A stretch of DNA of 64,000 nucleotides from an uncultured Bacteroidales bacterium (GTDB taxonomy: Bacteria > Bacteroidota > Bacteroidia > Bacteroidales > UBA932), in NCBI GenBank assembly GCA_944323785.1, contig CALUTU010000005.1, positions 39,319-103,318 on the forward strand, given 5' to 3'. How positions within the stretch are numbered: the first letter of the stretch is position 1; each line of letters starts with the position of its first letter. A program made the position numbers and the translations under genes. Shown in pieces: positions 10,666 through 43,266 of the stretch. The notes beneath the pieces were generated by a model. It did not search any database. It was not told the DNA's origin and saw nothing but the letters and a program-made list of their open reading frames with translations.

Positions 10666-10956
10666 CTATTTACCGAATCTCTTCTCTTTTATCTTCTTGA
10701 TCTGGTCCTGGAGGACATCGACGCAGTCCACAACCGCGTCCTCGAATGTAGGTGCAGTCCTCTCGATGATGAGGTCATCTCCGGGAATGCCCAGTCTCAC
10801 CTTCACTGTCTTGCCATGGTCAGGCTGAACCGTGAGAGCGACATCACAGCTGATGATGTTGTCAAAAAACTTTTCCAGCTTGCCGACTTTCTTGTCGATG
10901 AAGTCCAGCAGTTTCTGATCTGCATCGAATTTGATCGATTGAACGTTAATCTTCAT
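10666..10956 (-). CDS. hpf: Ribosome hibernation-promoting factor / RaiA family
   Basis: 96-aa ORF. Sequence is typical of short HPF (MKINVQSIKFDADQKLLDFIDKKVGKLEKFFD...). Confidence 0.88.
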   Translation of the reverse strand: MKINVQSIKFDADQKLLDFIDKKVGKLEKFFDNIISCDVALTVQPDHGKTVKVRLGIPGDDLIIERTAPTFEDAVVDCVDVLQDQIKKIKEKRFGK

Positions 10957-11926: not shown

Positions 11927-11954
11927 TTATTTTTGCAAATTTAATAAAATCCCC

Positions 11955-11962
11955 TATCTTTG
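11955..11962 (+). promoter_or_regulatory. Bacteroidetes -7 box TATCTTTG (rpsU)
   Basis: Matches the TAnnTTTG consensus 30 nt upstream of the ATG. A TTTG (-33-like) lies at 11932-11935, about 20 nt upstream. Confidence 0.6.
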
Positions 11963-11991
11963 CAGCCCTAATAAAAGGAGGTGGTAAAAGA

Positions 11992-12183
11992 ATGATTATA
12001 GTACCTATCAAAGAAGGCGAGAACATAGAGAAGGCTCTCAAGAAATTCAAACGTAAATTCGAGAAGACAGGAGTGGTACGCGAGCTCCGCAGCAGAAAGC
12101 AGTTCGAGAAACCTTCCGTAAAGAGAAGAAACGAGATCAAGAAGGCTATCTATGTACAGCACCTCAGACTGAACGAGGAGTAA
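11992..12183 (+). CDS. rpsU: 30S ribosomal protein S21
   Basis: 63-aa product MIIVPIKEGENIEKALKKFKRKFEKTG.... Internal start chosen downstream of the promoter box. Confidence 0.93.
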   Translation: MIIVPIKEGENIEKALKKFKRKFEKTGVVRELRSRKQFEKPSVKRRNEIKKAIYVQHLRLNEE

Positions 12184-18573: not shown

Positions 18574-19485
18574 ATGAGCAATTTATCATTAAAATACCTT
18601 CTACTTGCCGCCACAGTCGCCATCGCCGGCACATTCTCTTGCAGGCAAGCGGAAGAATTATCGTCGGAAGCCGAGGTCGTCTCATTCACCTTTGACGCCT
18701 CAGTCGATGCCAACAGCATCGTGACCTCACAGCCTGTCATCAACGGTGACAGCATCACATTCAGTGTCAGCTCCGACTCCGTTTCCGAGCGGCTCTCCGC
18801 CCTCGTTCCCACCATTACTGTCTCTGAAAACGCTACAGTCTCACCGGCATCAGGTTCGGCCGTGGACTTCTCACAAGGCACAGTGACATTCACTGTGACA
18901 GCACAGGACGGTGTAACAACAAGAGCCTATTTCGCGAAAGCAGTCACCGGCACTACTGACAATCCCGACATCACATACCCCATAGACGAGCAGCTGGCAG
19001 GCGAGTACAAGGGCCTGCTCAATATCACTTTGGGAGGTGAGCCCGTCGGTTCGGACATCGCCAGGAACATCACCGTCGCCAAAGTTGACGACGAGACCGT
19101 CAGCCTTACACTCGAGGACTTCTCGTTCATGGGCATAGAATTAGGCACCATCAAAGTTGACAGCTGCAAGATAGTCGGTTCCGACATACCGGAGTACGAC
19201 TACACCCTGTCCGGTGAACAGACTCTGACCCTCAATGTCATCGGCGAGCAGCACGTCACTGTCGACGGAGGATTCTTTGGCAACACCATAAGCCTCACGA
19301 TCAGTATCGACTTCAACGGCACACCCGTAGATGTAACGTTCGACGGTACCAAACTCACCGGCAGCGAGAGCAGCGAGGCACTCATCACCTCCTTCACCTT
19401 TGATGCCTCCTACCCCGCCAAGACCTACAAGCTGGCCGTAATCTTCGCAGCCAGCAAAGAAGGCAACCAGTACCGTGCCGCCTAG
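18574..19485 (+). CDS. Lipoprotein with calycin/lipocalin-like beta-barrel domain
   Basis: 303-aa ORF with lipobox ...AGTFSC. The segment LAGEYKGLLNITLGGEPVG...ITVAKVDDETVSLTLEDFSFMG resembles Bacteroidales calycin-like domains, from memory. Confidence 0.7.
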   Translation: MSNLSLKYLLLAATVAIAGTFSCRQAEELSSEAEVVSFTFDASVDANSIVTSQPVINGDSITFSVSSDSVSERLSALVPTITVSENATVSPASGSAVDFSQGTVTFTVTAQDGVTTRAYFAKAVTGTTDNPDITYPIDEQLAGEYKGLLNITLGGEPVGSDIARNITVAKVDDETVSLTLEDFSFMGIELGTIKVDSCKIVGSDIPEYDYTLSGEQTLTLNVIGEQHVTVDGGFFGNTISLTISIDFNGTPVDVTFDGTKLTGSESSEALITSFTFDASYPAKTYKLAVIFAASKEGNQYRAA

Positions 19486-19636: not shown

Positions 19637-21229
19637 ATGAAAAGATTTATCATCGCCGCAGCAGTCTGTACAGTCATAATGGGCTGCGAGAAAAATACCG
19701 GCAAAGAAGAAGACTCCGTGGACATTCCCTTGACAATCACAGTCAGCGACAACGGATTTTCCATGGAAGACGGGACCTATTCTAACAACAGGGCATTCTC
19801 GGCAGGAGACCGTATCGGTCTGTTCGCCTTGATGAACGGAGAGATACTGGATGGCTTCAACAACATCTGCCTCACCGCATCAGGCACCGGCGACGCCATT
19901 GTATGGCAAGCCGCGGATCCGGAGATGCTGTTTCCCTCCGGAGCAGAGTACTATGCTTACTGGCCCTATCAGGAGACCTTGCCTGCATCCGTAGACCTTA
20001 CGGCCTCTGATGCCGCAGGCTTTTTCTCAATGATAAGCGAGGCCTGGCCTGTAGCGTCCGACCAGAGCGGAGACGGATTCGACTCCTCCGACCTGCTTAT
20101 AGGCATGGCAGCTCCGGCGGACAACAGTCTCAGTCTCGGCATGTCACATGCCATGGGACTTGTTGAGATAAGCCTTCCGGGGACATTCTACACATTCACC
20201 AACACGGACTACGACATCCCTGACTATTCGTTGAGCGGTCTCAGAATCTCTTTTGACTCAAAGATTCCCAAAAGTAAAAACGGGAGACTTCTTTTGGTCG
20301 TAGAACCGGGTGCCTTCTCCATCCCATGCACATACTCCGGTGAGTCCAAAACCTATGACGGCAATGCTGAAGCCGGAAAATGCACTTCCTTCTCCGAAGG
20401 CGAGCCGACTGTCATAGAGCACAATCTCCAGATAGGCGACTTCTTCCTCGCGGACGGAAACCTGCTCTCAAAGGACGCTCCGGCATCCGAAGTAGGCTCC
20501 GCCAATGTAATAGGGCTTGTATGCCAGATTGACCCGGAAAGAATCGGCAACGGTGAAAAAGAAGCACTCGGAGGGACAGCCCATGCTCTGGTTCTTGCTA
20601 CACGGGGAGCCGGATATGGCCAATACTACAGCTGGTACAACGACTACTCGACTGGCAATTTCGAGAGGGATGAGTCCGAAATAGGCTTTACCAGCATCCC
20701 CGAGCTTACGGATCCGCAAGAACTTTACAGCCTGGCCATAGCCGACATAGAAGGCTACGCGAACTACCACCTGCTCATCACTGAGAGAGCAGCCGATGTC
20801 GCAGCCGGAAATTATCGCGGCTTCCAGGCCATAACCCTCTTCAAAAATGAGGTCGGAGGTCCGGCAGAAGGCATGACAACAGGCTGGTTTATGCCGGCAG
20901 GAGGCCAGCTGCTGGACGCCATCAGCAATCTTACCGGTCTGCAGTTTGACGAGTCCAATGTACAGGCCAGTTCAGCAGTCGGAGGCTGGGACGGATGCCT
21001 GTCCTGGATGGAGATGGGCACTGTGGTGTCCTTGATGAACAGCGCCATGGAGAAGGTCAGCTTCACCAACAAGATACTGTTCGCTGACGCCGGCAACGGA
21101 ATACAGATAGCAGCACAGTCCTCTCCCACAAGGTATCGTTACATCGATTTCGCGGACGGCGGATGGATAGAATACCTGTGCTACGATAAAAACACCGGTG
21201 CGACGGTAAGACCCATGCTGGCTTTCTAA
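19637..21229 (+). CDS. Fimbrillin-family lipoprotein with a DUF1566-like C-terminal region
   Basis: 530-aa ORF with lipobox VIMGC. N-terminal region has F-S-A-G-D-R-I-G-L-F, typical of Bacteroidales fimbrillin-like proteins. C-terminal GWFMPAGGQLLDAISNL resembles the DUF1566 W-x-LP-x-x-x-EL motif. Confidence 0.7.
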   Translation: MKRFIIAAAVCTVIMGCEKNTGKEEDSVDIPLTITVSDNGFSMEDGTYSNNRAFSAGDRIGLFALMNGEILDGFNNICLTASGTGDAIVWQAADPEMLFPSGAEYYAYWPYQETLPASVDLTASDAAGFFSMISEAWPVASDQSGDGFDSSDLLIGMAAPADNSLSLGMSHAMGLVEISLPGTFYTFTNTDYDIPDYSLSGLRISFDSKIPKSKNGRLLLVVEPGAFSIPCTYSGESKTYDGNAEAGKCTSFSEGEPTVIEHNLQIGDFFLADGNLLSKDAPASEVGSANVIGLVCQIDPERIGNGEKEALGGTAHALVLATRGAGYGQYYSWYNDYSTGNFERDESEIGFTSIPELTDPQELYSLAIADIEGYANYHLLITERAADVAAGNYRGFQAITLFKNEVGGPAEGMTTGWFMPAGGQLLDAISNLTGLQFDESNVQASSAVGGWDGCLSWMEMGTVVSLMNSAMEKVSFTNKILFADAGNGIQIAAQSSPTRYRYIDFADGGWIEYLCYDKNTGATVRPMLAF

Positions 21230-21601: not shown

Positions 21602-21646
21602 ATAAAAAAAGCACAGCCCATTCGGGAAAACCGGAATGGACTGTGC
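21602..21646 (-). terminator. Rho-independent terminator (end of lipoprotein operon 1)
   Basis: The minus strand reads GCACAGTCCATTC-loop-GAATGGGCTGTGC (one G-U pair) followed by TTTTTTTATG. Lies 32 nt after the stop at 21678. Confidence 0.8.
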
Positions 21647-21677
21647 TGATTAATTCAGACTGGTCAGTAGCCTACCG

Positions 21678-23615
21678 TCATTTCGACAACAATACCGGTG
21701 CTGCGGATGGACCGTTCATAAGATCCACCAGATCCTGAATAGGACCCACGTTCGTAGTTACTGCCTGTACGAAAGTCCTGCTGACAGGTCCCCAGATACC
21801 TTCCGCGTCATTGGCCCACGTCACGAATGTGTAATCATAGTAGTCCGTATCATAATACTTATAAGGAACAATAATATGCGTGGTTGTATGATCTTCAACC
21901 TCTACCGTAAAAGGATTATCCGGCAGCCAACTCATAAGATCGTCGTCAGTCTTATACTCCTCCTCGGGATTAGAGTAGTTTCCGACAAGGTTGCTGTTAT
22001 AATAGCATTGTACGGCTTCCTCGGAAATCGTCACTTCGAATACGGCTAAGGCATTTCCGGAAACTGATGCGCTGCTTTCAGTGAAAAGTCCGGCCTCCAG
22101 AGCCTCATCTCCGTCGTAAATTCCCACCAGTTTATTGGAGAATATGGCTTTTGACTGCTCCTCAACCGTTGTGCTTGCTTCTTCAGTCACTTCAGCATTG
22201 CCTGGCTCCCCGTCATTGGATATAGCCACGACAGCTATCACATAGTCGGTCTCGGGAGTAAGGCCCGTAGCCTCAAAGTACTCGTATGTTCCCCTATAGC
22301 ATACCGAAGAGACTGCGTCTGTCATAGTATAACCGGGGTTGAAATCGATATTGAGATCATAATTGCTTTGAACGGCGGCTACTACTTCCTTCTGCGCCTT
22401 TTCCCAAGTGTACTCCGCTTTAGAAAGGACTACCGGCAGGTAGTAAATGGCACCGCATGAGTCCGTAGGATGGACCTCAAAGCCCAGTCTCTTTGCAGTA
22501 GCTACATTGACGATAATATCCGCTTTAAACTCATCAGGCTGCATACTGTGACCTGTATTAAAGGCCTCAAGCTCACAGCTGCTGGTAATGCCCATACCGG
22601 GAGTGTACCCGAATGCGAAAAGATAATACCTGCTGTCGGAATTAACCTCGAAATCCGGAATATCATAAGATCCGGTATAAAGCCCCATACCCTGATCAAG
22701 ATATGCGCCCTGATTGGTCACATACATCTTGGCAATTGCGTCCGCCTCATCCTCACTGATTCCAGGATAGTTTGTAGAAGGCTGGCACAGCCATACATAT
22801 GTTGCCTCATTGTCTGACGGCACCACCGACACATGCGCTGTTGTCGCGGTGATATCCGAGACAGACAGAGTGAAGGTCAGCTCAAATTCCTCTGCGGTGG
22901 TGGCATTGTCCTTAGCAATGCCTGTCTGAAGCGAGCCGTCTGAGGCTGAAAGTCCCATTACCGTCAGCAGATACTCTTTCTGCGGCTCAAGGCCTGTGAT
23001 ACTTCCTGTCCTCGTACCGGTAAACATATTTGCTGAAAGATAATCCTCCAGACTGCCTCCGGCCGCCTCGGTTATCTGCTCCAGTACAGCCGCATGCAGC
23101 TCCTCATCCGAAGATGACGCGTATGAGGCCGGAAGCGCGGCCACATAATAAGGCTGGGTATCCACACTCGGGACCACACGCCATGCGATGGCTTCCGATG
23201 TCGTACCTGTTACAGTAAGCTCAAAGGTACATTCTGCCTCCAAGGTACTGGCCTCGACGGTAGCTATCTCGGAATACAGGTCGCCATTGGCAGCCACTAC
23301 GGCAAAATAATAATCAGTAGACGGTTCCAGACCCGTAACCTCAACATCCCCGCCAGGTACCTCCACCTGCGTACCGGCACTCAGCAGTCCATTGGCAGAA
23401 GGCACTGACTGCAGGTCCTTTATCTGCATATACGCAAGTTCTGTCGCTCCCTCGGAGCTTATTCTTAAAGTTATGGATGAGGCATCAGACGACACCGCCT
23501 CCACCGATACGGTCGGAGCAGAGCCCTGCTCATCCTTGTTACAGGACGACAACAGCGCTGCCAGGACAACAGCTCCCGACAGCACGGACATTCTTAAAAA
23601 ATCTTTTCCTTTCAT
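21678..23615 (-). CDS. Surface lipoprotein with tandem FN3-like domains (operon 1, gene 7)
   Basis: 645-aa ORF with lipobox LLSSC followed by NKDEQ. Repeated segments end in TGLEPSTDYYFAVVA, TGLEPQKEYLLTVMG and TGLTPETDYVIAVVA. The N-terminal domain is paralogous to 40678-42210. Confidence 0.8.
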   Translation of the reverse strand: MKGKDFLRMSVLSGAVVLAALLSSCNKDEQGSAPTVSVEAVSSDASSITLRISSEGATELAYMQIKDLQSVPSANGLLSAGTQVEVPGGDVEVTGLEPSTDYYFAVVAANGDLYSEIATVEASTLEAECTFELTVTGTTSEAIAWRVVPSVDTQPYYVAALPASYASSSDEELHAAVLEQITEAAGGSLEDYLSANMFTGTRTGSITGLEPQKEYLLTVMGLSASDGSLQTGIAKDNATTAEEFELTFTLSVSDITATTAHVSVVPSDNEATYVWLCQPSTNYPGISEDEADAIAKMYVTNQGAYLDQGMGLYTGSYDIPDFEVNSDSRYYLFAFGYTPGMGITSSCELEAFNTGHSMQPDEFKADIIVNVATAKRLGFEVHPTDSCGAIYYLPVVLSKAEYTWEKAQKEVVAAVQSNYDLNIDFNPGYTMTDAVSSVCYRGTYEYFEATGLTPETDYVIAVVAISNDGEPGNAEVTEEASTTVEEQSKAIFSNKLVGIYDGDEALEAGLFTESSASVSGNALAVFEVTISEEAVQCYYNSNLVGNYSNPEEEYKTDDDLMSWLPDNPFTVEVEDHTTTHIIVPYKYYDTDYYDYTFVTWANDAEGIWGPVSRTFVQAVTTNVGPIQDLVDLMNGPSAAPVLLSK

Positions 23616-23629
23616 AATATAGGCTAATT

Positions 23630-24616
23630 TTATAGTTGTTCTTCATCGGAGTACGGCCCCATGTACCTGAGGTAATACCTAAGTTTTCCATGAGGGATAT
23701 AACACTTCGAACCGTCATAATTGGCCAGCACGAATCCCAACCGGTCTGAGGTGCCGAAATAGTCAGTCAGATAATCCGGATGCCACATGTAGACGACATC
23801 ATAGACCATCTCCTCATTTTCTTTAGAGAACTGAATCCTCACTTCCCTGTCATAAAGAGTATTGCATGTGTCAGAGACGGTCATGATACCTGTCTCCTCA
23901 TCAAATGTGAACTTTCCGGCAATACGTATGACAGTAGCGGCTCCGGCCACAGTCTCCATGCCGTCCACGACCTCAATGCATCCGTCATTGAACGTCACCG
24001 TGAAGAAAGTCCTCATTTCGGGATTGACAGCCTCCGGATCCGTGAACTCGAATCCCAACGCATCCTCAGACGATATCAGATCGTCCGGATGCTCCATGTT
24101 CCAGTCATGCGCATACTGGTCCGCATACTCTCCAGCCGTGACATACGAGTCCCAAAGTTCGGACTGACGCTCGGGATTCACTTCCTGGAATATAGTCTCC
24201 TCCCTGTCGAACTTGCATATCCTTGCTGTCCAGACAGCATTTTCCAGGTCGTACATATAAACCTTTGAAGCATCACCCTGCTCGACTGTGAAGAACACAT
24301 CCTCAGCCAGTCTGTCGCTGACAAGATGCACTACGGCAGTCCTGGCCGCCCCCCTATTGGTGTCTACCTGAAAGGTCAGCACACCGTCCACACTGAAATC
24401 CCAGCCTCCGATCCATGTCTCTCCGCATACCGGTTCCAGTTCGACATTCTCATTTCCATCAACTAAGTATTTGATCGAAAAAGTACCTCCTGCCGACGGG
24501 ACTGTCAAAGTATTGGGAGCGATACTTACGGCAACATCCGAAGACGAACCGGAATCCCTTTCGCACGATACGGACACTGCAAGAATCACTACTGCAAATA
24601 AAAAAATTAAACGTTT
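23630..24616 (-). CDS. Lipoprotein with BACON-like N-terminal domain (operon 1, gene 6)
   Basis: Lipobox VSVSC followed by ERDSGSSSD. BACON-like segment reads LTVPSAGGTFSIKYLV...TAVVHLVSD...FTVEQ. Start could be 24643. Confidence 0.75.
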   Translation of the reverse strand, partial: KRLIFLFAVVILAVSVSCERDSGSSSDVAVSIAPNTLTVPSAGGTFSIKYLVDGNENVELEPVCGETWIGGWDFSVDGVLTFQVDTNRGAARTAVVHLVSDRLAEDVFFTVEQGDASKVYMYDLENAVWTARICKFDREETIFQEVNPERQSELWDSYVTAGEYADQYAHDWNMEHPDDLISSEDALGFEFTDPEAVNPEMRTFFTVTFNDGCIEVVDGMETVAGAATVIRIAGKFTFDEETGIMTVSDTCNTLYDREVRIQFSKENEEMVYDVVYMWHPDYLTDYFGTSDRLGFVLANYDGSKCYIPHGKLRYYLRYMGPYSDEEQL

Positions 24617-24788
24617 CATAATATAAATAATTAAAACTTTCATTTATCCGAAATCACCGTTGCCGGCATCAATTCACCATGAACAGCCAGAGACGTGATG
24701 TCAATTGCAAAGAAGAACGTATGAATGTCTCAAACTCACATTAATATAATCAAGTTAAACATCAAACAAAGCATGCGCTTATCGGCAG

Positions 24789-24796
24789 CAAAGTTA
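24789..24796 (-). promoter_or_regulatory. Possible internal -7 box TAACTTTG in the 211-bp AT-rich gap of operon 1
   Basis: TAnnTTTG on the minus strand. It lies more than 145 nt upstream of the next start, so this is weak. Confidence 0.25.
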
Positions 24797-24854
24797 CCGA
24801 CATATTTCAAGATAAGCAAATTTTTATAACCAATTCTTATATTGTCGTCCTCTA

Positions 24855-26477
24855 TTAAGACTCAGGCTCCTCCCAGACCGGCTCCCCGTCGTATTCGAAG
24901 GCAAACTCATCCACGTACATCAGACTGCCGATGCCCCCGGTGAAAAAGTCCGCATACTTGCTGGCCACGGCAACCACGGCGCAGTATGTCGGCTTACGAT
25001 GGTCGCGGTACTTGATGTCTATCGAGAACTGCTTGTACTGACCGCCCGTACCCGTGCTGTCCACCAGTTCCCCGTAACCGATTACGTCCGGGTCATTGAC
25101 GTCGAGATACACGTGCTCATTGGTATTGACCCTGCAAGGTCCGTCCCATGCCGTCACGTAGACGAAGATATGACACCGGTCCATCCGTCCGCCGATAGTA
25201 TTGCGGTCAAAGGGAAGATCCACTCCCGACGGAGGATTGACATTGTCAATGGGCACGGGCTCGTAACTGTACCATCCCGTCATCCTCAACGGTCTGGTCT
25301 CGAAGGGGCGTCCGAAGAACACCTCGGCTCCGAGTCCCTGCACGCTTCCGAAATGCCCCGAGAACACATTGCCGCCGGCCATGGCTATCACGACCTTGAC
25401 AGTCTCCAGTCTTGCGGCCATCTTGCCGTCACCGGACACCGCCAGAAAACTCTCCTCCGGAGAAGTCGGATTGGCCTCCCCGATGATATTCGCGCCTATA
25501 TTACCCGAGTCCCACCAGTAACCCGCGTCCAGGTCAGGATTGGCAAACCAGCTCTTGCCGTCCTTTATCCACTGGTCAAAACCCATATTGGGCATCTGTG
25601 CGGCAGCCTCCGTAGTGAAGGTCTCCTCGCTGCCCTCCGCATCTCCGGAATATATCCTGTAGACATAGTCCGTTTCAGGCTCAAGGCCTGTCAGACGGGC
25701 GTTCACGTTCATGCCTGACACCTCCACTCCGGATACTTCCGTCCACTCGGTGTCCGACGCCTTCCGGTACCTGAAACCAGGAGCCTCAGAGCCTTCGGGA
25801 ACCATACCGTAAAGATAGGCCGAGTACGCCCACGCATCAGCCGGCTCGGTAGTCAGCGTCACTTCCCGCGGTATGACAGCCATGGTCCACTCCTCCACGA
25901 CATCCCTGTATGACACTGTAAACACCTGCGGTGAGGTAAAATCCCTGACCGACTCCGGAGCCGGAGTAATGACAGAGTTGGAAGGACCGAGTTTCATGTC
26001 CGTAATCTCAATGGAGTCCAAAGGAGTATCCAAAGTCACATAGACCACGGCCTCATGCTCGTCGGGATTGATGGAAGCCTCACCTATCTGGTTGCGTACC
26101 CGGACATATCTCTCAATCGTCTGGGTGGCGGTCACAGTCCAGCGGTACACCTGCCCGGGCCATGTGGTCAATTCATAGTACAATGGAGCCGACAGGTCGA
26201 CAAAGGCAGTGTCGAGGGCCGGAGACACTGTCGTATTGGAAGACGTCTCGAATCTGAGCAGGCGGACATGGCTCATAGTCACCGTATCAGCCATATCCAC
26301 GGACACCGTCAACGCGGATGAGTCGATCACAGCCGCGGACAGCTGCCCCTGAACCTCAAAGGCGGTTATAGTCCCCAGTCTCCTGGGATAAGGGATGTCA
26401 TTCTTTATACATCCGGAAGCCGCAAGCAGAATTGCCGCGGACATCAGGGCGCAAATGATATTTTTCCTGGACGACAT
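24855..26477 (-). CDS. Lipoprotein: FN3-like + PCMD-like C-terminal domain (operon 1, gene 5)
   Basis: 540-aa ORF with lipobox AASGC. FN3-like segment ARLTGLEPETDYVYRIY. C-terminal module MPNMGFDQWIKDGKSWFANPD...WWDSGNIGAN...LMYVDEFAFEY is shared with genes at 27281 and 30248. The 'putative carbohydrate metabolism domain' assignment is from memory. Confidence 0.75.
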   Translation of the reverse strand: MSSRKNIICALMSAAILLAASGCIKNDIPYPRRLGTITAFEVQGQLSAAVIDSSALTVSVDMADTVTMSHVRLLRFETSSNTTVSPALDTAFVDLSAPLYYELTTWPGQVYRWTVTATQTIERYVRVRNQIGEASINPDEHEAVVYVTLDTPLDSIEITDMKLGPSNSVITPAPESVRDFTSPQVFTVSYRDVVEEWTMAVIPREVTLTTEPADAWAYSAYLYGMVPEGSEAPGFRYRKASDTEWTEVSGVEVSGMNVNARLTGLEPETDYVYRIYSGDAEGSEETFTTEAAAQMPNMGFDQWIKDGKSWFANPDLDAGYWWDSGNIGANIIGEANPTSPEESFLAVSGDGKMAARLETVKVVIAMAGGNVFSGHFGSVQGLGAEVFFGRPFETRPLRMTGWYSYEPVPIDNVNPPSGVDLPFDRNTIGGRMDRCHIFVYVTAWDGPCRVNTNEHVYLDVNDPDVIGYGELVDSTGTGGQYKQFSIDIKYRDHRKPTYCAVVAVASKYADFFTGGIGSLMYVDEFAFEYDGEPVWEEPES

Positions 26478-26483
26478 GACTCA

Positions 26484-27284
26484 TCAGTTTTTTGACGCTG
26501 ACGGCTTTTCGTTGAGCACCGGCAGCACGAAATTGATTCCTATGTTGATTGACAGCAGGTTGAGCTTGAAATTGGCCTTCGATGTCTCATAACTGCCCTC
26601 GTAGACCTGATTGGTTGTCTGCGATATCCGCTTCCACTCCAGACCGAGTATGCCCACCGAGGCCTCCACACACATGTCATTGGTCACAAAAACCGATACT
26701 CCCGGTATAACATCTATGCCTATGTCCAGAATTTTCTGGTAAGTTCCGGTAAGATTGTCGCCCGTCCCGGAAAGAGACTTGCCCTGTCCGGCTCCGAAGT
26801 TCAGGGATATGTCGCTGAATATTCCGAACACCCTGCTCTTTCCTATCGGTATATAATAACGGTAGGACACGGAACCGTAGTATGTGTGCTGCAGGGTATA
26901 GAAATCAGATATTCCGAAGGAAAGGTCGTCAGACAGAGAAATATCGGTCTGGTCTATCCTTCCGAGCGTTCTCTTATAGGAAAATTTTACGCCCACTGCC
27001 ATATTCTTCGCAAAAGAGTAATATATACTGGGAGTGACAGAAAGAGTGTAGGCATTGATATTCATGTCATCAAGTATCAGGAACGTGTAGTCATAGAAAC
27101 TGTAGTCCCTGTACGACACTGTGCCTCCGAACATCAACTGTCCTTTGGGCATAAACACAGGCGCGTCCCTATGATCCAGACCACGGTCAAACTTTTCCGC
27201 TCCCGTGGATGAGAACGGAAAAGCCGCAAGAAGCACTGTCAGCAGACATAACCCCGCAAAACTGATATTAGCCTTTTTTATCAT
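26484..27284 (-). CDS. Small outer-membrane beta-barrel protein (operon 1, gene 4)
   Basis: 266-aa ORF with a signal peptide and no lipobox. Shows an alternating hydrophobic/aromatic strand pattern with many Y/F/G. ATGA overlap with the upstream gene. Confidence 0.75.
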   Translation of the reverse strand: MIKKANISFAGLCLLTVLLAAFPFSSTGAEKFDRGLDHRDAPVFMPKGQLMFGGTVSYRDYSFYDYTFLILDDMNINAYTLSVTPSIYYSFAKNMAVGVKFSYKRTLGRIDQTDISLSDDLSFGISDFYTLQHTYYGSVSYRYYIPIGKSRVFGIFSDISLNFGAGQGKSLSGTGDNLTGTYQKILDIGIDVIPGVSVFVTNDMCVEASVGILGLEWKRISQTTNQVYEGSYETSKANFKLNLLSINIGINFVLPVLNEKPSASKN

Positions 27285-29011
27285 TCAAACAAGAATTCAA
27301 ATTCGTCTATATACATGGTACTGCCCACTCCGCCGGTAAAATAGTCGGCATACTTGCTGGCAGTGGCCACTACGAGCACATGAGTAGGTATGCGCTCCAG
27401 GTCGCGGTACTCCAGATCGATGGTAAACTCCTTATACTCTCCGTTTGAGTTTTCGGGAATCTCCAGTTCTCCATAGGCTATCACTGCCGGATCTTCGTCA
27501 GGAACGAAGAATGTTCCGGTATTGGTGTTCACATTGAACGGAGAGCTCCAGTCCGTCAGAGCAACATATATCTTGCCGACATCCATAGTTCCCTTCAGAT
27601 CCTCATAAGGAGCCTTCACCTTGTCTATTGCTTTAGGTGCATACGAATACCATCCGTGCAGGGCGGTCGGACGGCAGGTGTACGGGCGGCCGAAGTTAAT
27701 CGAAGCTCCCAGACCGGACACCGAACCGAACGAGCCGGAATAGATATTGCCCCCTGCAAAGGCCAGTATCACATATTTGGACTCCATCCTTACAGCCTTT
27801 CCGGAGACCACAAATGTCTCTTCCGGAGATGTCGGGTTCACCTCGCTCAGTGTGTTGGCTCCCTTATTTCCGGAATCCCAGAAATAATTGTCCCCCATAT
27901 CGGCATTGGCATACCAGTTCTTTCCATCCTTGTACCACGAGTCAAAGTTGAAGTTGGGGAGCTGGTCCGCCGCCTCGGTCGTAAACTGCACTACATTGTC
28001 ATCCTTCCTGTCCTGAGCCGTCACAGCCCTGAACTCATACTCCGTCTCAGGCTCCAGGCCCGTGATACGGGCCGAGAATGTCTTGCCTTCGTAGGAGATC
28101 TCACCTGCGAAATCCGTCCACTCAGCCTCCGAGGCCTTTCTGTACTGGAATCCAAGGCCCTCGGGAGCCGAATCCGTAGTATACTTTCCGTTTACGTATG
28201 CGAACATGGCCCATGGATTGGCATCTCCAGTAATCACCTCCTGATTAAGAACCGGCAGATCTATGATGTCTATGACATGCTCCTTGTCGTTAAGCGTACC
28301 GTCCACAGTGACTTTCAGGGACAGACCTCCGCCTGTCGAAGTGCCGCCCTCCACATCGAAACTGAACTTATAGTGATCCCTTGGCTCAACATCGGAGACC
28401 TCCCCTGACTGGGAGAATCTGTCCCCGTCAGTATTGACCAAATCGATAGTCCACTTCAGAGTACCTGTACACCTGAAATAGCCCTCAGAGGCCAGAGTCT
28501 CACCGGCATAGACCAGCGAACCGCCCTCATTGCCGTTGGACACAGTCACAGAGTACTCCGTAAAATTGATCCGGACATTCTCCGAGACCGTCACCGTAGC
28601 CTTCACATTGGCCAGAGTGCAGACAATATCCGCATAGGCGCTTTCCCCGGCCACGACATCCACTGTGTCAGCACCTTTATAATAAGGTGCCTCAAAGGCG
28701 GCCTCCACATCCTCACCGTTGGTGGCCTCCACTATATACTTGCCCTCCGTAAGAGAGACAGGCTCGTCCATTATAGTGTGATGATCCTCAATTGTCTTCA
28801 CTATCACTCCGTTCTCGTAATTCTTGATTACCACCTTAAATGTCGGGTCATCCTCCTGCGCCTTGACCTCCGTCACCGTCAGGTCTGAGGAGATATTGAG
28901 TCTGAGAAAGCCCTCACCTCCATTGCCCGGCACCAGTTCGTCTTGACGGGAGCACGATATTGCCGCAATAACGGCCATCAGTGCAACAATAACTGCATTT
29001 TTCATATCCAA
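27281..29011 (-). CDS. Lipoprotein: DUF4493-like N-terminal module + FN3-like + PCMD-like domain (operon 1, gene 3)
   Basis: 576-aa ORF with lipobox AAISC followed by SRQDE. FN3-like segment ARITGLEPETEYEFRAV. C-terminal module LPNFNFDSWYKDGKNWYANAD...FWDSGNKGAN...MYIDEFEFLFE. Confidence 0.75.
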   Translation of the reverse strand: MDMKNAVIVALMAVIAAISCSRQDELVPGNGGEGFLRLNISSDLTVTEVKAQEDDPTFKVVIKNYENGVIVKTIEDHHTIMDEPVSLTEGKYIVEATNGEDVEAAFEAPYYKGADTVDVVAGESAYADIVCTLANVKATVTVSENVRINFTEYSVTVSNGNEGGSLVYAGETLASEGYFRCTGTLKWTIDLVNTDGDRFSQSGEVSDVEPRDHYKFSFDVEGGTSTGGGLSLKVTVDGTLNDKEHVIDIIDLPVLNQEVITGDANPWAMFAYVNGKYTTDSAPEGLGFQYRKASEAEWTDFAGEISYEGKTFSARITGLEPETEYEFRAVTAQDRKDDNVVQFTTEAADQLPNFNFDSWYKDGKNWYANADMGDNYFWDSGNKGANTLSEVNPTSPEETFVVSGKAVRMESKYVILAFAGGNIYSGSFGSVSGLGASINFGRPYTCRPTALHGWYSYAPKAIDKVKAPYEDLKGTMDVGKIYVALTDWSSPFNVNTNTGTFFVPDEDPAVIAYGELEIPENSNGEYKEFTIDLEYRDLERIPTHVLVVATASKYADYFTGGVGSTMYIDEFEFLFE

Positions 29012-29021
29012 GTCCTCCCAT

Positions 29022-30221
29022 TTATGCTTCCATGATGATGGTCAGTGTCCTGGTAACGGAGGCCCCGTCATTGTCGGTAATGACTATTTCCAGTTCATTG
29101 GTCTCCTCAGGCATAGCACTGAGGAATGCCGCGATCTGGAAGACTACCTCTGTCTTGCCCTTCACATCGGCCGATGTTATGCCGAACAGAGTACCCCAGA
29201 AACCCTCCTCTGCCGCATTCATGTTGGCTAAATCCACAGAATAAGACATCTGCATCATATCCAAAAGTCCCCTGAGTCCTGTTGACTTGACATTGACCAC
29301 ATACTTTTCAATACCTGCGGGCGCACTTACCGTCAGATTGAACTCAGAAGGCAGGGCGGACTTGCTGTAGGTGACAGGTTCGTCAATACCGGCTGTGGCC
29401 GAGATGGTGATTGCATCTGTATCAGGAACTTCAGGCTCATCCGGATCTACCGGATTCTCTTCCATACCGTCAATGATGATATGCTCCTCTTTCTCGTTGC
29501 AGGTATAGTCGATGCTTATTCCGTCGGAGAAATCGGCATATCCGGTGCCTCCCGCATCCAGTGTGAAGATATGGTGATCCCTTGCCGCCACCTCGGATAT
29601 CTCCATATGATGAGTGACCGTACCTCCGTTCTTTCTGACGGCATACAGGTCCATGGTCAGAGGCGCCACGTCGAAATAACCGGCGTCACCGGCGTCAATC
29701 CTGTCCTTCGTAAAGATAAGCGGGCCGTCCTCCGTCGTCACTGTTACAGTAAAGTCTGTCTCCACCTCTGCAAGGAACGAGTCGGTACACCGTACTGACA
29801 CTTTCATATTGGCTATAGTGCAGACCACAGATACCTGGGCAGTGCTTCCGGCCTCAACAGTCACCTCCTGGGAACCGAAGAAGACAGGCTGATTCCACGC
29901 TACAGGCTGCTTCTCGCCGGAACCTGCCTCGACTCTGTACACTGCGGGATCCAGAGAGACCGTACCGGGCATATCCGCGTACCTGTCCCACGAATACACC
30001 GTCCTGCCGCTGGCCACATCCACGATATTGATTGCAAATTCATTGACATCTGCTGTCTCTTCTGACTTGGAAACAGGGCTCACTTCTACAAAACTGCCCG
30101 TTGCTGTCAGGGAAAGTGTCAGCTGAGCCTTGTCTCCGCTGTATGACACTCCTTCTTTGTTGCATCCAGTGGCCAATAAGGCTGACACAGCCACTGTCAA
30201 TGCCAAAACTGTCTTCTTCAT
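29022..30221 (-). CDS. Lipoprotein: DUF4493-like N-terminal module + unknown C-terminal domain (operon 1, gene 2)
   Basis: 399-aa ORF with lipobox LATGC. The N-terminal ~230 aa are alignable by eye with the N-termini of the 27281 and 30248 products (…VVCTIANMKVSV…GYF…). Confidence 0.7.
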   Translation of the reverse strand: MKKTVLALTVAVSALLATGCNKEGVSYSGDKAQLTLSLTATGSFVEVSPVSKSEETADVNEFAINIVDVASGRTVYSWDRYADMPGTVSLDPAVYRVEAGSGEKQPVAWNQPVFFGSQEVTVEAGSTAQVSVVCTIANMKVSVRCTDSFLAEVETDFTVTVTTEDGPLIFTKDRIDAGDAGYFDVAPLTMDLYAVRKNGGTVTHHMEISEVAARDHHIFTLDAGGTGYADFSDGISIDYTCNEKEEHIIIDGMEENPVDPDEPEVPDTDAITISATAGIDEPVTYSKSALPSEFNLTVSAPAGIEKYVVNVKSTGLRGLLDMMQMSYSVDLANMNAAEEGFWGTLFGITSADVKGKTEVVFQIAAFLSAMPEETNELEIVITDNDGASVTRTLTIIMEA

Positions 30222-30247
30222 TTTTGTTTTTTTAAAGGTTTTAGTTT

Positions 30248-31990
30248 TTATTCATACATAAGTTCTATATCGTCCACTGCCAGGATACTGCCGCCATGTA
30301 CATTGGCCGACAGGCCGCCGCCGTAGATGATATCCATACCGTACTGCCATTTATCCTTTCCTGAACCGCAGACAAACTCCACATATATAGTATCTGCCTT
30401 CAGGTCTGTCACGGTATAATTTATATCCACATAGACCTGCGTCCACGAGGAGACTGAGGACGAAGATGTGAGCGTGCCCTCTCCTATCACCGTTTCTCCG
30501 CTCTTTACCGAGATATAGGCCTTGAAACTGTCCGAATCATACGGTGAGTATTTGTACCAGAAGCTCATCCGGGTCGGACGGGAGGCGAAAGGACGGCCCT
30601 GCTCCCCGCCGTACACACCTGTGAATATGCGGCCGAAACCGACCGTTGGGAAAGGCGCCGTCCCGCTGGTCGCTGAATTGCTTACAGCAATGGTCATCAT
30701 CTGAGCTGCCCTGTTGCTTTCATGCCCCTCAACATAAGAGACCATCGGGAAACTCTTATAGGATGCACCGGTGTTGGTCCTGTTTCCGGGAGTTGTCTCA
30801 GAATTGTTGCAGTCCCACCACCTGGATTCCTCGTTCAGATAAGGAGCATAATTGGTCTGATATACATCATCCCCCCAGAACAATCCTGTCTTGTTCACAT
30901 AGTATGTCCATTCGCTCCACTCCTCAAAGCCGGCATTCTCCACCTGCTGTGCTGTTTCGGTAGTGAACTCCTGCACGGACGAGACGGCAGACTTGTACCT
31001 GGCACGTATCTCATATCTGGTGGCAGGCTCCAGCCCGGTAAGCGTCACACTGTTGACGCTGCCGGACACCGATGAGGTAAAGGACGGACGGCTCCATTCC
31101 GAAGCACCGTAGGCACGTACCTCCGGGTAGAGCTCCGCCGGATCTCCGTCAGTCGTCATATCCACATACACCCTGGTGGCCCAGACATCTCCGGCAGGAA
31201 TAGCGGATATATCCGCACCGGCCTTGTCGGGCAGCATGTCCGACGGCAGCTCGATATTGACCTGATGGTCATTTGTCGCGGGATCTATCGAGACTGTCAG
31301 AGAGACATCCGAATCGGGAACCTCGCCGGTATCTATCTTCAGGGTGATAAAGTCTCCAGGCTCGCCGACTATCTCCTTTGAGTTAGTGAAGCCTGAAGTT
31401 TCCCCGTCAGGACCGGTCAGTTCCACGTAGACAGAGATATCGCCGCAGGGCAGATATCCCGCTTCCTTACAGTCCTTATCAAAGACCAGTGAGCCGCGCG
31501 AAGTGCTTACAGTCGCCGTATATTCGGTATATTGCTTCCGAATATTGTCTCCGAACTCCACAGCTACCTTCACATTGCCCATACGGCAAGTAACGCTTAC
31601 ATCGGTCACCTGCTGAGGCTGCACGGTAAACTCCTGTTCTCCGATAAAGAAAAATGCATTGAATCCGCTCGCGGCAGAGTCACCGTAAGAAGCCCTCAAT
31701 GTATAGGGTCCTCCGGCGTTCATCGCGAATACGGTACTCTCCTGCGCCAGATATTCGGCATAGGTGTCCCATCTTTTGAAAATAACTCCCTGCGGATTGA
31801 TAATCTCAATCTTGAAGTCTTCCGGACTGAGCTGTCCCTCCGCATCGGCCCTGGTAGCAGTCAGGTCCGTCAGCAGTTCCAGGCGGATACCGCCCATTCC
31901 GGTCTCAAAAGGCACTTCTTCCCTGACAGAACAGGAAACAAGCGACACCAGGAGCAGGAGATACATTGGAAAAAATTTCGCTTTTCTCAT
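30248..31990 (-). CDS. Lipoprotein: DUF4493-like N-terminal module + FN3-like + PCMD-like domain (operon 1, gene 1)
   Basis: 580-aa ORF with lipobox SLVSC followed by SVREE. FN3-like segment VTLTGLEPATRYEIRARY. C-terminal module VENAGFEEWSEW...WWDCNNSETTPGN...LAVDDIELMYE. Confidence 0.75.
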   Translation of the reverse strand: MRKAKFFPMYLLLLVSLVSCSVREEVPFETGMGGIRLELLTDLTATRADAEGQLSPEDFKIEIINPQGVIFKRWDTYAEYLAQESTVFAMNAGGPYTLRASYGDSAASGFNAFFFIGEQEFTVQPQQVTDVSVTCRMGNVKVAVEFGDNIRKQYTEYTATVSTSRGSLVFDKDCKEAGYLPCGDISVYVELTGPDGETSGFTNSKEIVGEPGDFITLKIDTGEVPDSDVSLTVSIDPATNDHQVNIELPSDMLPDKAGADISAIPAGDVWATRVYVDMTTDGDPAELYPEVRAYGASEWSRPSFTSSVSGSVNSVTLTGLEPATRYEIRARYKSAVSSVQEFTTETAQQVENAGFEEWSEWTYYVNKTGLFWGDDVYQTNYAPYLNEESRWWDCNNSETTPGNRTNTGASYKSFPMVSYVEGHESNRAAQMMTIAVSNSATSGTAPFPTVGFGRIFTGVYGGEQGRPFASRPTRMSFWYKYSPYDSDSFKAYISVKSGETVIGEGTLTSSSSVSSWTQVYVDINYTVTDLKADTIYVEFVCGSGKDKWQYGMDIIYGGGLSANVHGGSILAVDDIELMYE

Positions 31991-32027: not shown

Positions 32028-32035
32028 CAAAAGTA
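32028..32035 (-). promoter_or_regulatory. -7 box TACTTTTG (lipoprotein operon 1)
   Basis: TAnnTTTG on the minus strand, 38 nt upstream of the ATG at 31990. Confidence 0.55.
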
Positions 32036-32116: not shown

Positions 32117-33961
32117 ATGAGCGAAGAATTAAGAAATTACGACAGCAGTGCGATAGAGACCCTGGACTGGTACACCCACATCCGCACCAGACCGGGCATG
32201 TACATAGGCAGTACCGGAGACGGCTCGATGCCTGATGACGGCCTGTATGTACTGGTCAAGGAGGTGATAGACAATTCCATAGACGAATACGCGTCAGGTT
32301 TCGGAAAAGAGATAATCATAACAGTGGAGGGCCGTCAGGTAACTGTCCGCGACTTCGGCAGAGGTGTCCCCCTGGAAAAGGTGGTGGACGTATCCAGCAA
32401 GCTGATGACGGGCGGCAAGTTCGACAGCGGAGTATTCAAGAAGAGTGTAGGCCTAAACGGCATAGGTATCAAGGCCGTCAATGCCACATCTGTTTATTTT
32501 CAGATCACATCCTACCGTAACGGGAAATTCCGCAGCGCGACTTATTCAAAGGGTATACAGAAAAGCGACGAGAGCGGCGACAGCACCGAGAAGAACGGTA
32601 CGCTCGTAAGTTTCATCGCCGATGACGAGGTCTTCCACAACTACTCCTACAACATGGAGTTTATCGAGACCATGGTGCGCAACTACGCCTACCTCAACAC
32701 CGGACTCACCCTCAGGCTCAACGGTACCGTTTATCACTCGGCAAACGGCCTGCTCGACCTGGTCAACGAGACCATGGCGGCAGAACCGCTGTACCCTCCC
32801 ATCCATCTTAAAGGAGAGGACATCGAGTGCGTCATAACCCACGGAGAGAGCAACGGGGAGAATATCGCATCCTTTGTCAACGGCCAGAACACGACTCAGG
32901 GCGGTACACATCTCGCCGCTTTCCGCGAGGCGGTAGCCAAAACCGTCAAGGAGCATTTCAAGAAAGACTTCGAGCCGGCCGATGTCCGCCAGTCGATAGT
33001 CGGAGCCATCAGCATCCGCGTCAATGAGCCCGGCTTCGGCAACCAGACCAAGACCAAGCTCAGCTCGAAGGACGTGCGTCCAGGTCTGTCAGTCCGCTCA
33101 TTCATAGGCGATTTCGTGGAGGAGGAGCTGGACAACTACCTCCACAAGCATCCCGAGACCGCCTCCGTCATGCTGAAGAAAATACAGGCTTCGGAAAAGG
33201 AGCGGAAAGCCATATCCGGCCTGCAGAAGAACCTGAAGGAGAAGGTCAAGAAAGCCAGTCTCTGCAACAAGAAGCTAAGGGACTGCCGCGTACACTATAC
33301 CGACTCGCGCAACGAGCTCGCCGAGCTTTCGTCCATCTTTATCACCGAGGGAGACTCCGCCAGCGGCTCGATCACCAAGATCCGCGACGTGAATACCCAG
33401 GCCGTGTTCAGCCTCAGGGGCAAGCCGCTGAACTGCGTGCAGAAAAGCGAGAAGGAGGTCCGCGAGAACGAGGAACTGCTCCTGCTCAAGGCCGCCCTCA
33501 ACGTGGACGAGGATATGGACAACCTCCGCTACAACAAGATAATCATCGCGACCGATGCCGATGTGGACGGAATGCATATCCGCCTGCTGATGGTCAGCTT
33601 CTTCCTCAAGTACTACCCCGAACTGGTGCGGCAGGGACATGTCCATATCCTCCAGACACCCCTGTTCAGGGTCTGCAACAAGAAGCGGAGCATATACTGC
33701 TACAGTGAGGAGGAAAAGGAGGCCGCCGTCAAGGAGATAGGTTCCGGGGCCGAGATCACCCGCTTCAAAGGTCTCGGAGAGATCTCGCCCGATGAGTTCA
33801 AGGACTTCATCGGTGAGAATATGAGACTGGACCCGGTCCGTCTGGACTCGGATGACAGCATCCCTACTCTGCTTCAGTTCTATATGGGGAAAAATACCAT
33901 TGACAGACAGGCGTTCATCCGTCAGAATCTGAGGTCAGAGCTAATTCTGGAAATCGTATAA
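32117..33961 (+). CDS. parE: Type IIA topoisomerase subunit B, probably topoisomerase IV ParE
   Basis: Motifs PGMYIG, EGDSASGS and LRGKPLN, plus a TOPRIM domain, in a 614-aa product. The 195-codon N-terminal extension of the raw ORF overlaps the divergent operon and promoter, so it was trimmed. ParE versus GyrB is judged only from the short length. Confidence 0.8.
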   Translation: MSEELRNYDSSAIETLDWYTHIRTRPGMYIGSTGDGSMPDDGLYVLVKEVIDNSIDEYASGFGKEIIITVEGRQVTVRDFGRGVPLEKVVDVSSKLMTGGKFDSGVFKKSVGLNGIGIKAVNATSVYFQITSYRNGKFRSATYSKGIQKSDESGDSTEKNGTLVSFIADDEVFHNYSYNMEFIETMVRNYAYLNTGLTLRLNGTVYHSANGLLDLVNETMAAEPLYPPIHLKGEDIECVITHGESNGENIASFVNGQNTTQGGTHLAAFREAVAKTVKEHFKKDFEPADVRQSIVGAISIRVNEPGFGNQTKTKLSSKDVRPGLSVRSFIGDFVEEELDNYLHKHPETASVMLKKIQASEKERKAISGLQKNLKEKVKKASLCNKKLRDCRVHYTDSRNELAELSSIFITEGDSASGSITKIRDVNTQAVFSLRGKPLNCVQKSEKEVRENEELLLLKAALNVDEDMDNLRYNKIIIATDADVDGMHIRLLMVSFFLKYYPELVRQGHVHILQTPLFRVCNKKRSIYCYSEEEKEAAVKEIGSGAEITRFKGLGEISPDEFKDFIGENMRLDPVRLDSDDSIPTLLQFYMGKNTIDRQAFIRQNLRSELILEIV

Positions 33962-39227: not shown

Positions 39228-39252
39228 TGTAAATTCTTAAATTAAATTATAC

Positions 39253-40659: not shown

Positions 40660-40677
40660 ACTACAATATATGATTGA

Positions 40678-42210: not shown

Positions 42211-42237
42211 GTTTGAATATTCTAAGTATTAAATTGT

Positions 42238-43074: not shown

Positions 43075-43097
43075 CTTGATTGATTTAATAGTACGTT

Positions 43098-43105
43098 TAA
43101 AACGG
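43098..43105 (-). promoter_or_regulatory. -7 box TAAATTTG (lipoprotein operon 2)
   Basis: TAnnTTTG on the minus strand, 24 nt upstream of the ATG at 43074. Confidence 0.55.
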
Positions 43106-43266
43106 TGCAAATTTAATGCAAAAAAATCAGATTGTGACAAGTGTGTGACAAAAAAACGTATGGCAAAATAAACGTAGGTTTAAATTGCTGTTCCATCCAG
43201 AGATACACAGCAACTGGGTAATTGCATGACCTGCATGTAGGTAACTGCGCTGTCAGTGACTGAATG

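Follow-up and report, generated by a model that had tools for sequence, protein, structure and literature searches.

The stretch of DNA considered here (the window) comprises 64,000 nucleotides of an uncultured Bacteroidales bacterium (GTDB lineage Bacteria; Bacteroidota; Bacteroidia; Bacteroidales; UBA932), taken from contig CALUTU010000005.1 of GenBank assembly GCA_944323785.1 (positions 39,319 to 103,318 of the forward strand), and our subject is a minus-strand operon within it whose seven genes, g1 to g7, encode six predicted lipoproteins and one small outer-membrane beta-barrel (Table 1). An earlier annotation, made by a model from the letters and their open reading frames (ORFs) and hereafter called the original prediction, had proposed an uncharacterised cell-surface assembly at this site. 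The ORF list of the window gives seven co-directional genes spanning 21678-31990, with intergenic distances, from g1 through to g7, of 26, 10, -4, 6, 211 and 14 nt, reproducing the gaps originally described; the stop of g3 overlaps the start of g4 by 4 nt, and the true start of g3 may be an ATG two codons inside the called ORF. The 211-bp gap between g5 and g6 (24644-24854) is AT-rich as had been claimed, with a GC content of 36.5% against 51.2% across the operon. The upstream promoter-like box (TACTTTTG, of the form TAnnTTTG) was likewise recovered, in a 129-bp divergent intergenic region (36% GC) bounded on its other side by a parE/gyrB-like gene, and a second such box (TAACTTTG), in the g5-g6 gap and absent from the original prediction, is a possible internal promoter for g6-g7. 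Since motifs of this form are frequent (32 matches in the window, 18 expected), the box alone is weak, suggestive evidence for a promoter; a scan for the sigma-70 consensus returned sites no more numerous than in shuffled sequence. The strong terminator expected downstream is present: its hairpin contains a bulge, and the segment, folded directly to score its free energy, gave -26.7 kcal/mol (z = -5.5), with 0 of 200 shuffles folding equally well.

Table 1. Features of the operon and of its surroundings, in coordinates of the window.
Feature	Position	Strand	Length	Remarks
parE/gyrB-like topoisomerase gene	~32120-33961			neighbour of g1
TAnnTTTG box TACTTTTG	32028-32035	-		Bacteroidetes-type -7 promoter box, ~38 nt 5' of the g1 ATG
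g1 lipoprotein	30248-31990	-	580 aa	
g2 lipoprotein	29022-30221	-	399 aa	
g3 lipoprotein	27281-29011	-	576 aa	
g4 outer-membrane beta-barrel	26484-27284	-	266 aa	
g5 lipoprotein	24855-26477	-	540 aa	
TAnnTTTG box TAACTTTG	24789-24796	-		within the AT-rich 211-bp g5-g6 gap
g6 lipoprotein	23630-24643	-	337 aa	
g7 lipoprotein	21678-23615	-	645 aa	
Intrinsic terminator	21604-21647	-		16-pair hairpin (21611-21647) then seven U, ~30 nt past the g7 stop
Mfa_like_1 (fimbrillin-like) lipoprotein	19637-21229	+	530 aa	convergent with the operon
Calycin_like+DUF5018 lipoprotein	18574-19485	+	303 aa	internally deleted
Tyrosine recombinase (Phage_integrase)	10946-11926	-		adjoins intergenic 11928-12055
Second lipoprotein cluster	37932-43140	-		four genes, as follows
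BACON protein	42238-43140	-	300 aa	distant paralogue of g6
FN3-rich protein	40678-42210	-	510 aa	distant paralogue of g7
BACON+Omp28 protein	39253-40659	-	468 aa	
Protein of no family	37932-39227	-	431 aa	

Lipoboxes are present in six of the seven products, all but g4, and each is followed by at least one acidic residue among the six after the cysteine. All six had been credited with the Bacteroidota surface-export signal, first described in PMC5080379 and PMC6222051, a claim which stands in part: by the criterion of at least two acidic residues (PMC12578637), the signal is found in g1 (SVREEV), g3 (SRQDEL), g6 (ERDSGS) and g7 (NKDEQG), whereas g2 (NKEGVS) and g5 (IKNDIP) carry a single one. 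Pfam identified DUF4493 (PF14900) in g1, g2 and g3 (E = 1e-42 to 1e-47; 146-161 bits against a gathering cut-off of 27), PCMD (PF13201; cut-off 28) in g3 (4e-44, 151.5 bits) and g5 (6e-36, 124.8 bits) and partially in g1 (E = 1.6e-8, 35 bits), and FN3-type domains in g1, g3, g5 and g7, confirming these as the domain types first recognised from the letters; the BACON-like domain is confirmed only weakly, by a sub-threshold match in g6 (E = 0.0034). Thus g1 is built of a DUF4493 module (pro-strand GGIRLELLT, motif T-R-A), an FN3 domain and a shortened PCMD, its orthologues elsewhere reaching ~720 aa; g2 of DUF4493 (motif S-K-S, residues 51-53) and a C-terminal alpha/beta domain of no known family, here termed g2C (272-399); g3 of DUF4493 (motif V-K-A), FN3 and a full-length PCMD; and g5 of two immunoglobulin (Ig)-like domains, FN3 and PCMD. 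The BACON-like domain of g6 is N-terminal, and g7 is rich in FN3 domains.

The Pfam scan found catalytic, TonB-dependent receptor/Plug, SusD, sigma and two-component domains in none of the seven products, in line with the original prediction, and no NCBIfam model matched among the nine proteins scanned, which included all seven; profile searches revealed no catalytic domain. The original view that the recognisable domains are binding or structural types alone is a reasonable one, although the solved PCMD structures carry a putative enzyme label in the PDB. A canonical polysaccharide-utilisation locus (PUL) is rejected, as it was at the outset, because SusC/D are absent from the seven genes. 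A PDB sequence search with g1 returned FN3 noise only. The literature searched contained no mention of DUF4493, PF14900 or PF13201, and only irrelevant matches to PCMD, which agrees with the description of the assembly as uncharacterised.

The operon is conserved well beyond its own lineage. A genome scan using a barrel alignment, with one genome per GTDB species, yielded 79 loci, which were annotated with in-house hidden Markov models for DUF4493, the barrel and PCMD. In about 60 loci, each from a different species, five genes follow one strict order: DUF4493, often with PCMD (~720 aa); DUF4493 (~420-510 aa); DUF4493+FN3+PCMD (~700 aa); the barrel (~260 aa); and an Ig-Ig-FN3-PCMD protein (~520-540 aa). 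This core is carried by Rikenellaceae, Muribaculaceae, Odoribacter/Marinifilaceae, Tannerellaceae, Bacteroidaceae and Prevotellaceae, together with unclassified Bacteroidales, with barrel identity within syntenic loci down to 32% and frequent -4 nt overlaps on either side of the barrel. Locus look-ups with precomputed Pfam labels independently confirmed the order, and the same operon was present in four of the four loci that were seeded with DUF4493 instead of the barrel. Among the carriers are cultured species, namely Bacteroides caecigallinarum (barrel, WP_204400835.1) and Phocaeicola barnesiae (DUF4493, WP_018710900.1). Versions from Bacteroidaceae and Prevotellaceae have 2-6 extra DUF4493 genes downstream, many of them short. 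No Plug, TonB_dep_Rec or SusD domain lies within the related operons in the loci examined, and the flanking genes differ between species and include no conserved catabolic genes. Loss of the neighbourhood in relatives had been named in advance as an outcome that would count against the assembly; the core order is instead kept across at least six families, and chance clustering of ORFs is rejected because the synteny is conserved. The conserved unit, however, is g1-g5 and not the seven-gene operon originally delimited, since g6 and g7 are confined to the closest relatives.

The 266-aa signal-peptide barrel of the original prediction is g4, whose signal is of the signal-peptidase-I type and whose AlphaFold2 (AF2) model is a barrel of ~10 strands and ~240 residues (32 homologues; predicted local distance difference test score, pLDDT, 75.5); a conserved N-terminal segment (KFDRG...FMPKGQ) is unmodelled in AF2. 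Some 100 clustered homologues were found, annotated as "hypothetical protein" in their source records, the closest being that of Candidatus Coprenecus pullicola (Rikenellaceae), with 98% barrel identity. The protein has no Pfam, NCBIfam or PDB-sequence relative: the window copy gave no match to known small outer-membrane protein families (OmpA_membrane, OmpW, OMP_b-brl, DUF3575, PorT-like), and a relaxed Pfam scan of 32 homologues gave stray single hits only (OMP_b-brl at 2.6e-4 in one; DUF3575 at 0.02 in one). By structure, Foldseek retrieved only generic small barrels (OmpA, OmpW, OprG, NspA) at template-modelling (TM) scores of 0.25-0.43 and probability 1.0. The suggestion that the barrel is tied to the system is upheld by its genomic context, for it always adjoins a gene for a PCMD lipoprotein, often with 4-nt overlaps with its neighbours. 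In L003/L004 (9205-10822), L060, L063 and L068 the barrel gene is present as two tandem copies, flanked by the genes for the DUF4493+PCMD and g5-type proteins.

The oldest core of the system is the barrel together with the g5-type lipoprotein. This pair stands alone amid housekeeping genes, with no DUF4493 genes, in four loci (L034, L036, L040 and L050). In one of them, a Muribaculaceae metagenome-assembled genome (MAG; L036, 7688-11984), the lone pair is divergent from a parE/gyrB-like topoisomerase gene; as g1 of the window has the same neighbour, we take the two to represent one chromosomal site with and without the three DUF4493 genes. A related pair, its genes 3 nt apart, occurs in the Desulfobacterota (Desulfoluna limicola and a Desulfolunaceae MAG; L081, L083 9605-11431), where a 246-aa barrel (E = 1e-27) is joined by a 360-aa Ig+PCMD lipoprotein (E = 1e-30) with the N-terminus C-T-D-N-D-Y-F, which suggests that the two-gene module is ancient or has been horizontally transferred. 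Across 48 loci, from Rikenellaceae to Prevotellaceae, the mature N-terminus of g5-type proteins is nearly invariant as C-I-[K/E]-N-D-I-P-Y-P (C-I-K-N-D-I-P-Y-P in the window, region 26400-26408), a conservation that far exceeds what a lipoprotein export signal requires. Beyond it, a g5 profile of 17 sequences matches the levan surface glycan-binding protein (SGBP) of the cryo-EM utilisome entries 8a9y (chain T), 8aa0 and 8aa2 at E = 1.7e-11 (E = 1e-3 with the single g5 sequence), over residues 8-204, a span that takes in its N-terminal Ig-like domains. In the levan system, SusC and the lipidated N-terminal Ig-like domain of the SGBP together form a rigid unit at the lip of the barrel, and levan is bound by the C-terminal domain (PMC7618045). 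By analogy we infer that g5 docks on g4 and presents its PCMD head. Apart from this pairing, the gene for a 369-aa PCMD lipoprotein, which lies beside the Bacteroides version of the operon and on the strand opposite to it, overlaps the gene for a 269-aa OMP_b-brl_2 barrel (L005, 7285-9749), with a stand-alone Calycin_like gene nearby; this hints that PCMD lipoproteins are generally paired with small barrels.

The DUF4493 proteins bear a different signature. A lipobox lies upstream of the domain in 229 of the 250 DUF4493 ORFs across the loci, g1, g2 and g3 included, and in a set of 181 non-redundant DUF4493 lipoproteins drawn from these loci the cysteine is followed by an acidic linker, a strand of the form G-x-L-x-L-x-L and then a triplet, with T/S in 153/176, R/K in 149/177 (84%) and A/S in 138/177 of the aligned columns. 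The strict form [ST][RK][AS] occurs 15-65 residues past the cysteine in 145 of the 181, compared with 20.8 +/- 4.3 in shuffles and 12-23 in other 50-residue segments. A fimbrillin comparison set of 111 lipobox-bearing Mfa_like_1 proteins, seeded from the window's own Mfa_like_1 gene, has the same layout of lipobox, acidic linker, beta-strand and [ST][RK]A (strict motif in 73/111), and the median position of the R/K residue after the cysteine is 31 in DUF4493 and 35 in Mfa_like_1. In type V pili, FimA and Mfa1 are lipoprotein precursors that are cut by Arg-gingipain at Arg46 and Arg49, opening the donor-strand groove, and the anchors FimB and Mfa2 have no cleavage site and remain lipidated (PMC8512630). 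Within our own set the cleavage-like T-[R/K]-A motif is present in only one of 48 g5-type proteins, and g5 of the window is without it.

An AF2 model of g2 (pLDDT 79, from a 39-sequence alignment) comprises a low-confidence N-terminal strand (32-40), two beta-sandwiches of ~80 residues each (58-136 and 139-222), a disordered stretch (225-266; pLDDT 30-50) that covers the conserved DUF4493 C-terminal hairpin, and the confident g2C domain; the motif lies in a loop with a pLDDT below 50. Foldseek of this model against the PDB placed at least 10 Bacteroides "cell adhesion" entries in the top 50 (5cag, 3up6, 3gf8, 4gpv, 4h40, 3pay, 3ufi, 3t2l, 4k4k and 4dgu; E = 1e-6 to 2e-4, probability 1.0), a set which we take to belong to the FimA/Mfa superfamily. 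The C-terminal hairpin (L.I.I.IDESTND....EVPV.WI) terminates many short DUF4493-only proteins, and no other internal segment matches the pro-strand profile as well (+3.7 standard deviations); the hairpin could be a donor strand. From the N-terminal signature and this weak resemblance of fold, we propose that DUF4493 proteins would work like type V prepilins.

Taken together, these features are best read as those of a two-layer assembly, in which a complex of surface lipoproteins would be built on the barrel and bear prepilin-like arms headed by PCMD; we put this forward tentatively and at a little below even confidence. In the first layer, the ~10-stranded outer-membrane barrel g4 would be paired with g5, a surface lipoprotein that would keep its lipid permanently. 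Its N-terminal Ig-like domains would dock on the rim of the barrel, as their homology with the levan SGBP suggests, and its FN3 spacer would hold the PCMD jelly-roll head off the membrane. In the second, the DUF4493 lipoproteins g1-g3 would be exported to the surface and probably cut by an Arg/Lys-specific protease at T-[R/K]-A, after the N-terminal pro-strand, in the manner of type V prepilins. Cleavage would free a groove to be filled, by donor-strand exchange, with the C-terminal DUF4493 hairpin of a neighbouring subunit, the product being a short fibre, or a stalk with several arms, which would rise from the barrel/g5 base and display the PCMD heads of g1 and g3 and the C-terminal domain of g2. 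The BACON and FN3 proteins g6 and g7 would have been appended in this lineage behind a promoter-like box of their own. On this model the product of the cluster is probably a short structure on the cell surface that binds or adheres, the likely function being ligand capture or adhesion, with a glycan probably as the ligand.

It is worth noting, however, that a number of observations weigh against the prepilin-like part of the model. Firstly, the Foldseek matches of g2 are weak (TM 0.25-0.44, root-mean-square deviation 7-14 A) and generic tandem-Ig adhesins rank equally high; the DUF4493 sandwiches, at ~80 residues, are presumably about half the size of classical type V pilin domains; and the margin of the hairpin over the runner-up in the pro-strand comparison is small (6.15 against 4.86). 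Secondly, sequence comparison offers no link: an hhalign comparison of two profiles, built from 181 DUF4493 and 139 Mfa_like_1 sequences, gave a probability of 1.9%, relaxed Pfam scans of 39 DUF4493 members at E <= 5 found no FimA/Mfa family, and the DUF4493 profile matched nothing significantly among PDB sequences. Thirdly, the barrel/g5 pair exists without DUF4493, so that the primary role of the barrel is not in a pilus, and the version in the window is without a short DUF4493-only stalk protein, which makes a long fibre unlikely in this organism. Pfam also found no Mfa2 (DUF1812)/FimB-type anchor domain in the operon; for want of such an anchor and of profile homology, DUF4493 is not placed in the FimA/Mfa superfamily here. 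The original prediction had excluded a fimbrial operon and listed type V pilus components among the findings that would overturn it. The exclusion is now doubtful given the prepilin layout and the matches to pilin folds, and that outcome has come about in part, although homology at the level of profiles is absent.

Foremost among the alternatives is a static complex, in effect a small utilisome, in which all six lipoproteins stay lipid-anchored around the barrel, the PCMD heads capture a nutrient and a small or hydrophobic product passes to the barrel, DUF4493 serving as an Ig-like stalk in which the T-[R/K]-A motif is structural. We consider this unlikely, if the best placed of the competing explanations. 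It shares the whole of the first layer with the model preferred here, and the two differ only on cleavage and strand exchange. In its favour, stable complexes of surface lipoproteins with barrels occur throughout Bacteroidota (PMC12578637), g5 is homologous in its N-terminal region to the Ig-like domains of a bona fide SGBP, the barrel/g5 pair occurs without DUF4493 genes, and DUF4493 has no profile homology to pilins; to these may be added the frequent co-occurrence of PCMD with Calycin_like domains and other small barrels (in L005, and at 18574-19485 in the window) and the presence of the hydrophobic-solute channels OmpW and OprG among the best fold matches of the barrel. Against this, a motif found in 84% of sequences, in a predicted flexible loop and with fimbrillin-like spacing, is hard to call structural, and import through the barrel sits poorly with the lack of a TonB box or plug, with the lack of a periplasmic or inner-membrane uptake partner in the operon, and with flanks that vary among species and hold no conserved catabolic genes.

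The prepilin-like reading can also be pressed further, to hold that DUF4493 represents a new branch of protease-matured, donor-strand-exchange pilins, too distant for sequence methods to join to known pilins, whose fibre is nucleated and anchored on a dedicated base of the 10-stranded barrel and the SGBP-like lipoprotein; this we think rather unlikely. If it were true, this would be the first type V-like fibre with an outer-membrane component of its own, linking pilus assembly to the lipoprotein-barrel complexes of Bacteroidota. A further possibility, that the operon is an ordinary though very divergent FimA/Mfa type V fimbrial operon and the barrel an unrelated neighbour, seems improbable. 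It would account for the prepilin N-terminal layout, for the enrichment of type V pilin structures among the fold matches and for the Mfa_like_1 gene that lies just downstream, convergent with the operon and kept in the closest relatives, but it is opposed by the hhalign result and the lack of Pfam FimA/Mfa hits, by the missing Mfa2/FimB-type anchor and by DUF4493 domains presumably much smaller than those of classical pilins; moreover, the barrel is invariably in the operon and translationally coupled, and so is no chance neighbour. Least probable, and by some way improbable in its own right, is an enzymatic, glycan-degrading set in which the PCMD domains are glycoside hydrolases and the operon a PUL-like accessory cluster without SusC/D, for although the solved PCMD homologues 3hbz, 4jrl, 4het and 3s30 (to whose jelly-roll the g5 profile aligns at E = 1e-27 to 1e-30) are named "putative glycoside hydrolase" in the PDB, and the operon of L001 has SusC/D pairs on one side and a GH16 gene on the other, those names were given by structural genomics with no assay behind them, the Pfam name says no more than "putative carbohydrate metabolism domain", no CAZy-type family was matched, and the flanks differ in every lineage examined, so that the L001 context is not conserved. 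For PCMD, binding is a more economical reading than hydrolysis.

Downstream of the conserved core, g6-g7 are a separate two-gene lipoprotein module, appended in the lineage of the closest relatives and probably served by its own promoter. Homologues are found only in L007-L010 and L031, always after a gap; its length is 213-215 bp in four of these loci (L007-L009, L031) and 1.2 kb in the fifth, L010. A distantly paralogous BACON and FN3 pair, in the same order, belongs to the second lipoprotein cluster of the window (Table 1).

Three further features of the window deserve mention. The convergent Mfa_like_1 lipoprotein has a classical ...SNNR-A prepilin site, and only among the closest relatives (L007-L009, L031) is its gene conserved in this place. 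Beyond it, the Calycin_like+DUF5018 lipoprotein is internally deleted relative to a 604-aa Calycin_like/DUF5018/PCMD protein of Ca. Coprenecus pullicola (L007:17746-19560), residues 1-283 and 550-604 of which match the window and ~266 residues of which, including most of PCMD, are absent; the gene may be a pseudogene or an assembly artefact, and intact PCMD genes of ~600 aa occupy the same convergent position in many related loci. Lastly, in the intergenic region that adjoins the tyrosine recombinase gene, TAnnTTTG boxes occur on both strands, four in all.

Among the main routes by which gut Bacteroidales make contact with glycans, hosts and other microbes are surface lipoprotein-barrel complexes and type V pili, and here a cluster kept in at least six families of the order is composed entirely of components that are either a DUF or family-less. 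Were the proposed model to be true, the cluster would be a small-barrel counterpart of the SusC-based utilisome and a second, independent lineage using the principle of prepilin cleavage, and might explain where a fibre of the type V kind has its anchor. Mutational targets are provided by the T-[R/K]-A motif and by the C-I-[KE]-N-D-I-P-Y-P N-terminus, and the model is testable in the cultured carriers.

The cluster was compared with several known systems. Three were tried and rejected: type IX secretion cargo, as the products are lipoproteins and no C-terminal sorting domain was matched; a chaperone-usher system, as a 10-stranded barrel is far too small for an usher and there is no chaperone; and an Ffp1-type fimbrillin, as the Ffp1 paper offers no parallel for the operon or the barrel. 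Small outer-membrane barrels (the OmpA N-terminal domain, OmpW/OprG, NspA, OpcA, OmpT/Pla) have in common with g4 the antiparallel fold of 8-10 strands, from which g4 is set apart by its conserved N-terminal segment, its obligate lipoprotein partner and the lack of a sequence family match. The Calycin_like-PCMD proteins of Bacteroides (3hbz, 4jrl, 4het, 3s30) are likewise uncharacterised lipoproteins of Bacteroidales; they share the C-terminal PCMD jelly-roll but have a lipocalin-like N-terminal domain where the operon has DUF4493 or Ig/FN3. A similar arrangement is that of SusCD utilisomes and BtuB-BtuG, in which a surface lipoprotein with a lipidated N-terminal Ig domain, a second Ig domain and a distal ligand-binding head stands beside an outer-membrane barrel, as g5 would beside g4, and for the levan utilisome (8a9y/8aa0/8aa2) the likeness extends to homology between the N-terminal regions of SGBP and g5. 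Another shared feature is the export signal with two acidic residues, which four of the six lipoproteins bear. SusC is a TonB-dependent transporter, however, whereas g4 is without plug, TonB box and SusD lid; the head of g5 is a PCMD, and no genes for a glycoside hydrolase, for regulation or for uptake in the periplasm or inner membrane are linked to the operon.

Type V pili (FimA/Mfa1 of Porphyromonas gingivalis and the FimA/Mfa-like superfamily of Bacteroides) resemble the DUF4493 proteins in being made of lipoprotein subunits, in the acidic linker, amphipathic beta pro-strand and [ST]-[R/K]-[AS] motif ~30-35 residues from the cysteine, in a tandem beta-sandwich body, as predicted for DUF4493, with a conserved C-terminal hairpin as a potential donor strand, and in having several paralogous subunits per operon, some with adhesin-like C-terminal heads. 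Their FimB/Mfa2 anchors, like g5, are without the cleavage motif, although g5 is SGBP-like and not pilin-like. The DUF4493 cluster differs in having no sequence or profile homology to type V pili, no Mfa2/FimB-type anchor and, in the window, no obvious stalk subunit, and in its obligate outer-membrane barrel; type V pili are not known to have a dedicated outer-membrane component. The components of the cluster resemble two kinds familiar from known systems, type V prepilins and surface lipoprotein-barrel complexes; what is new is the combination of the two, together with a small, dedicated barrel.

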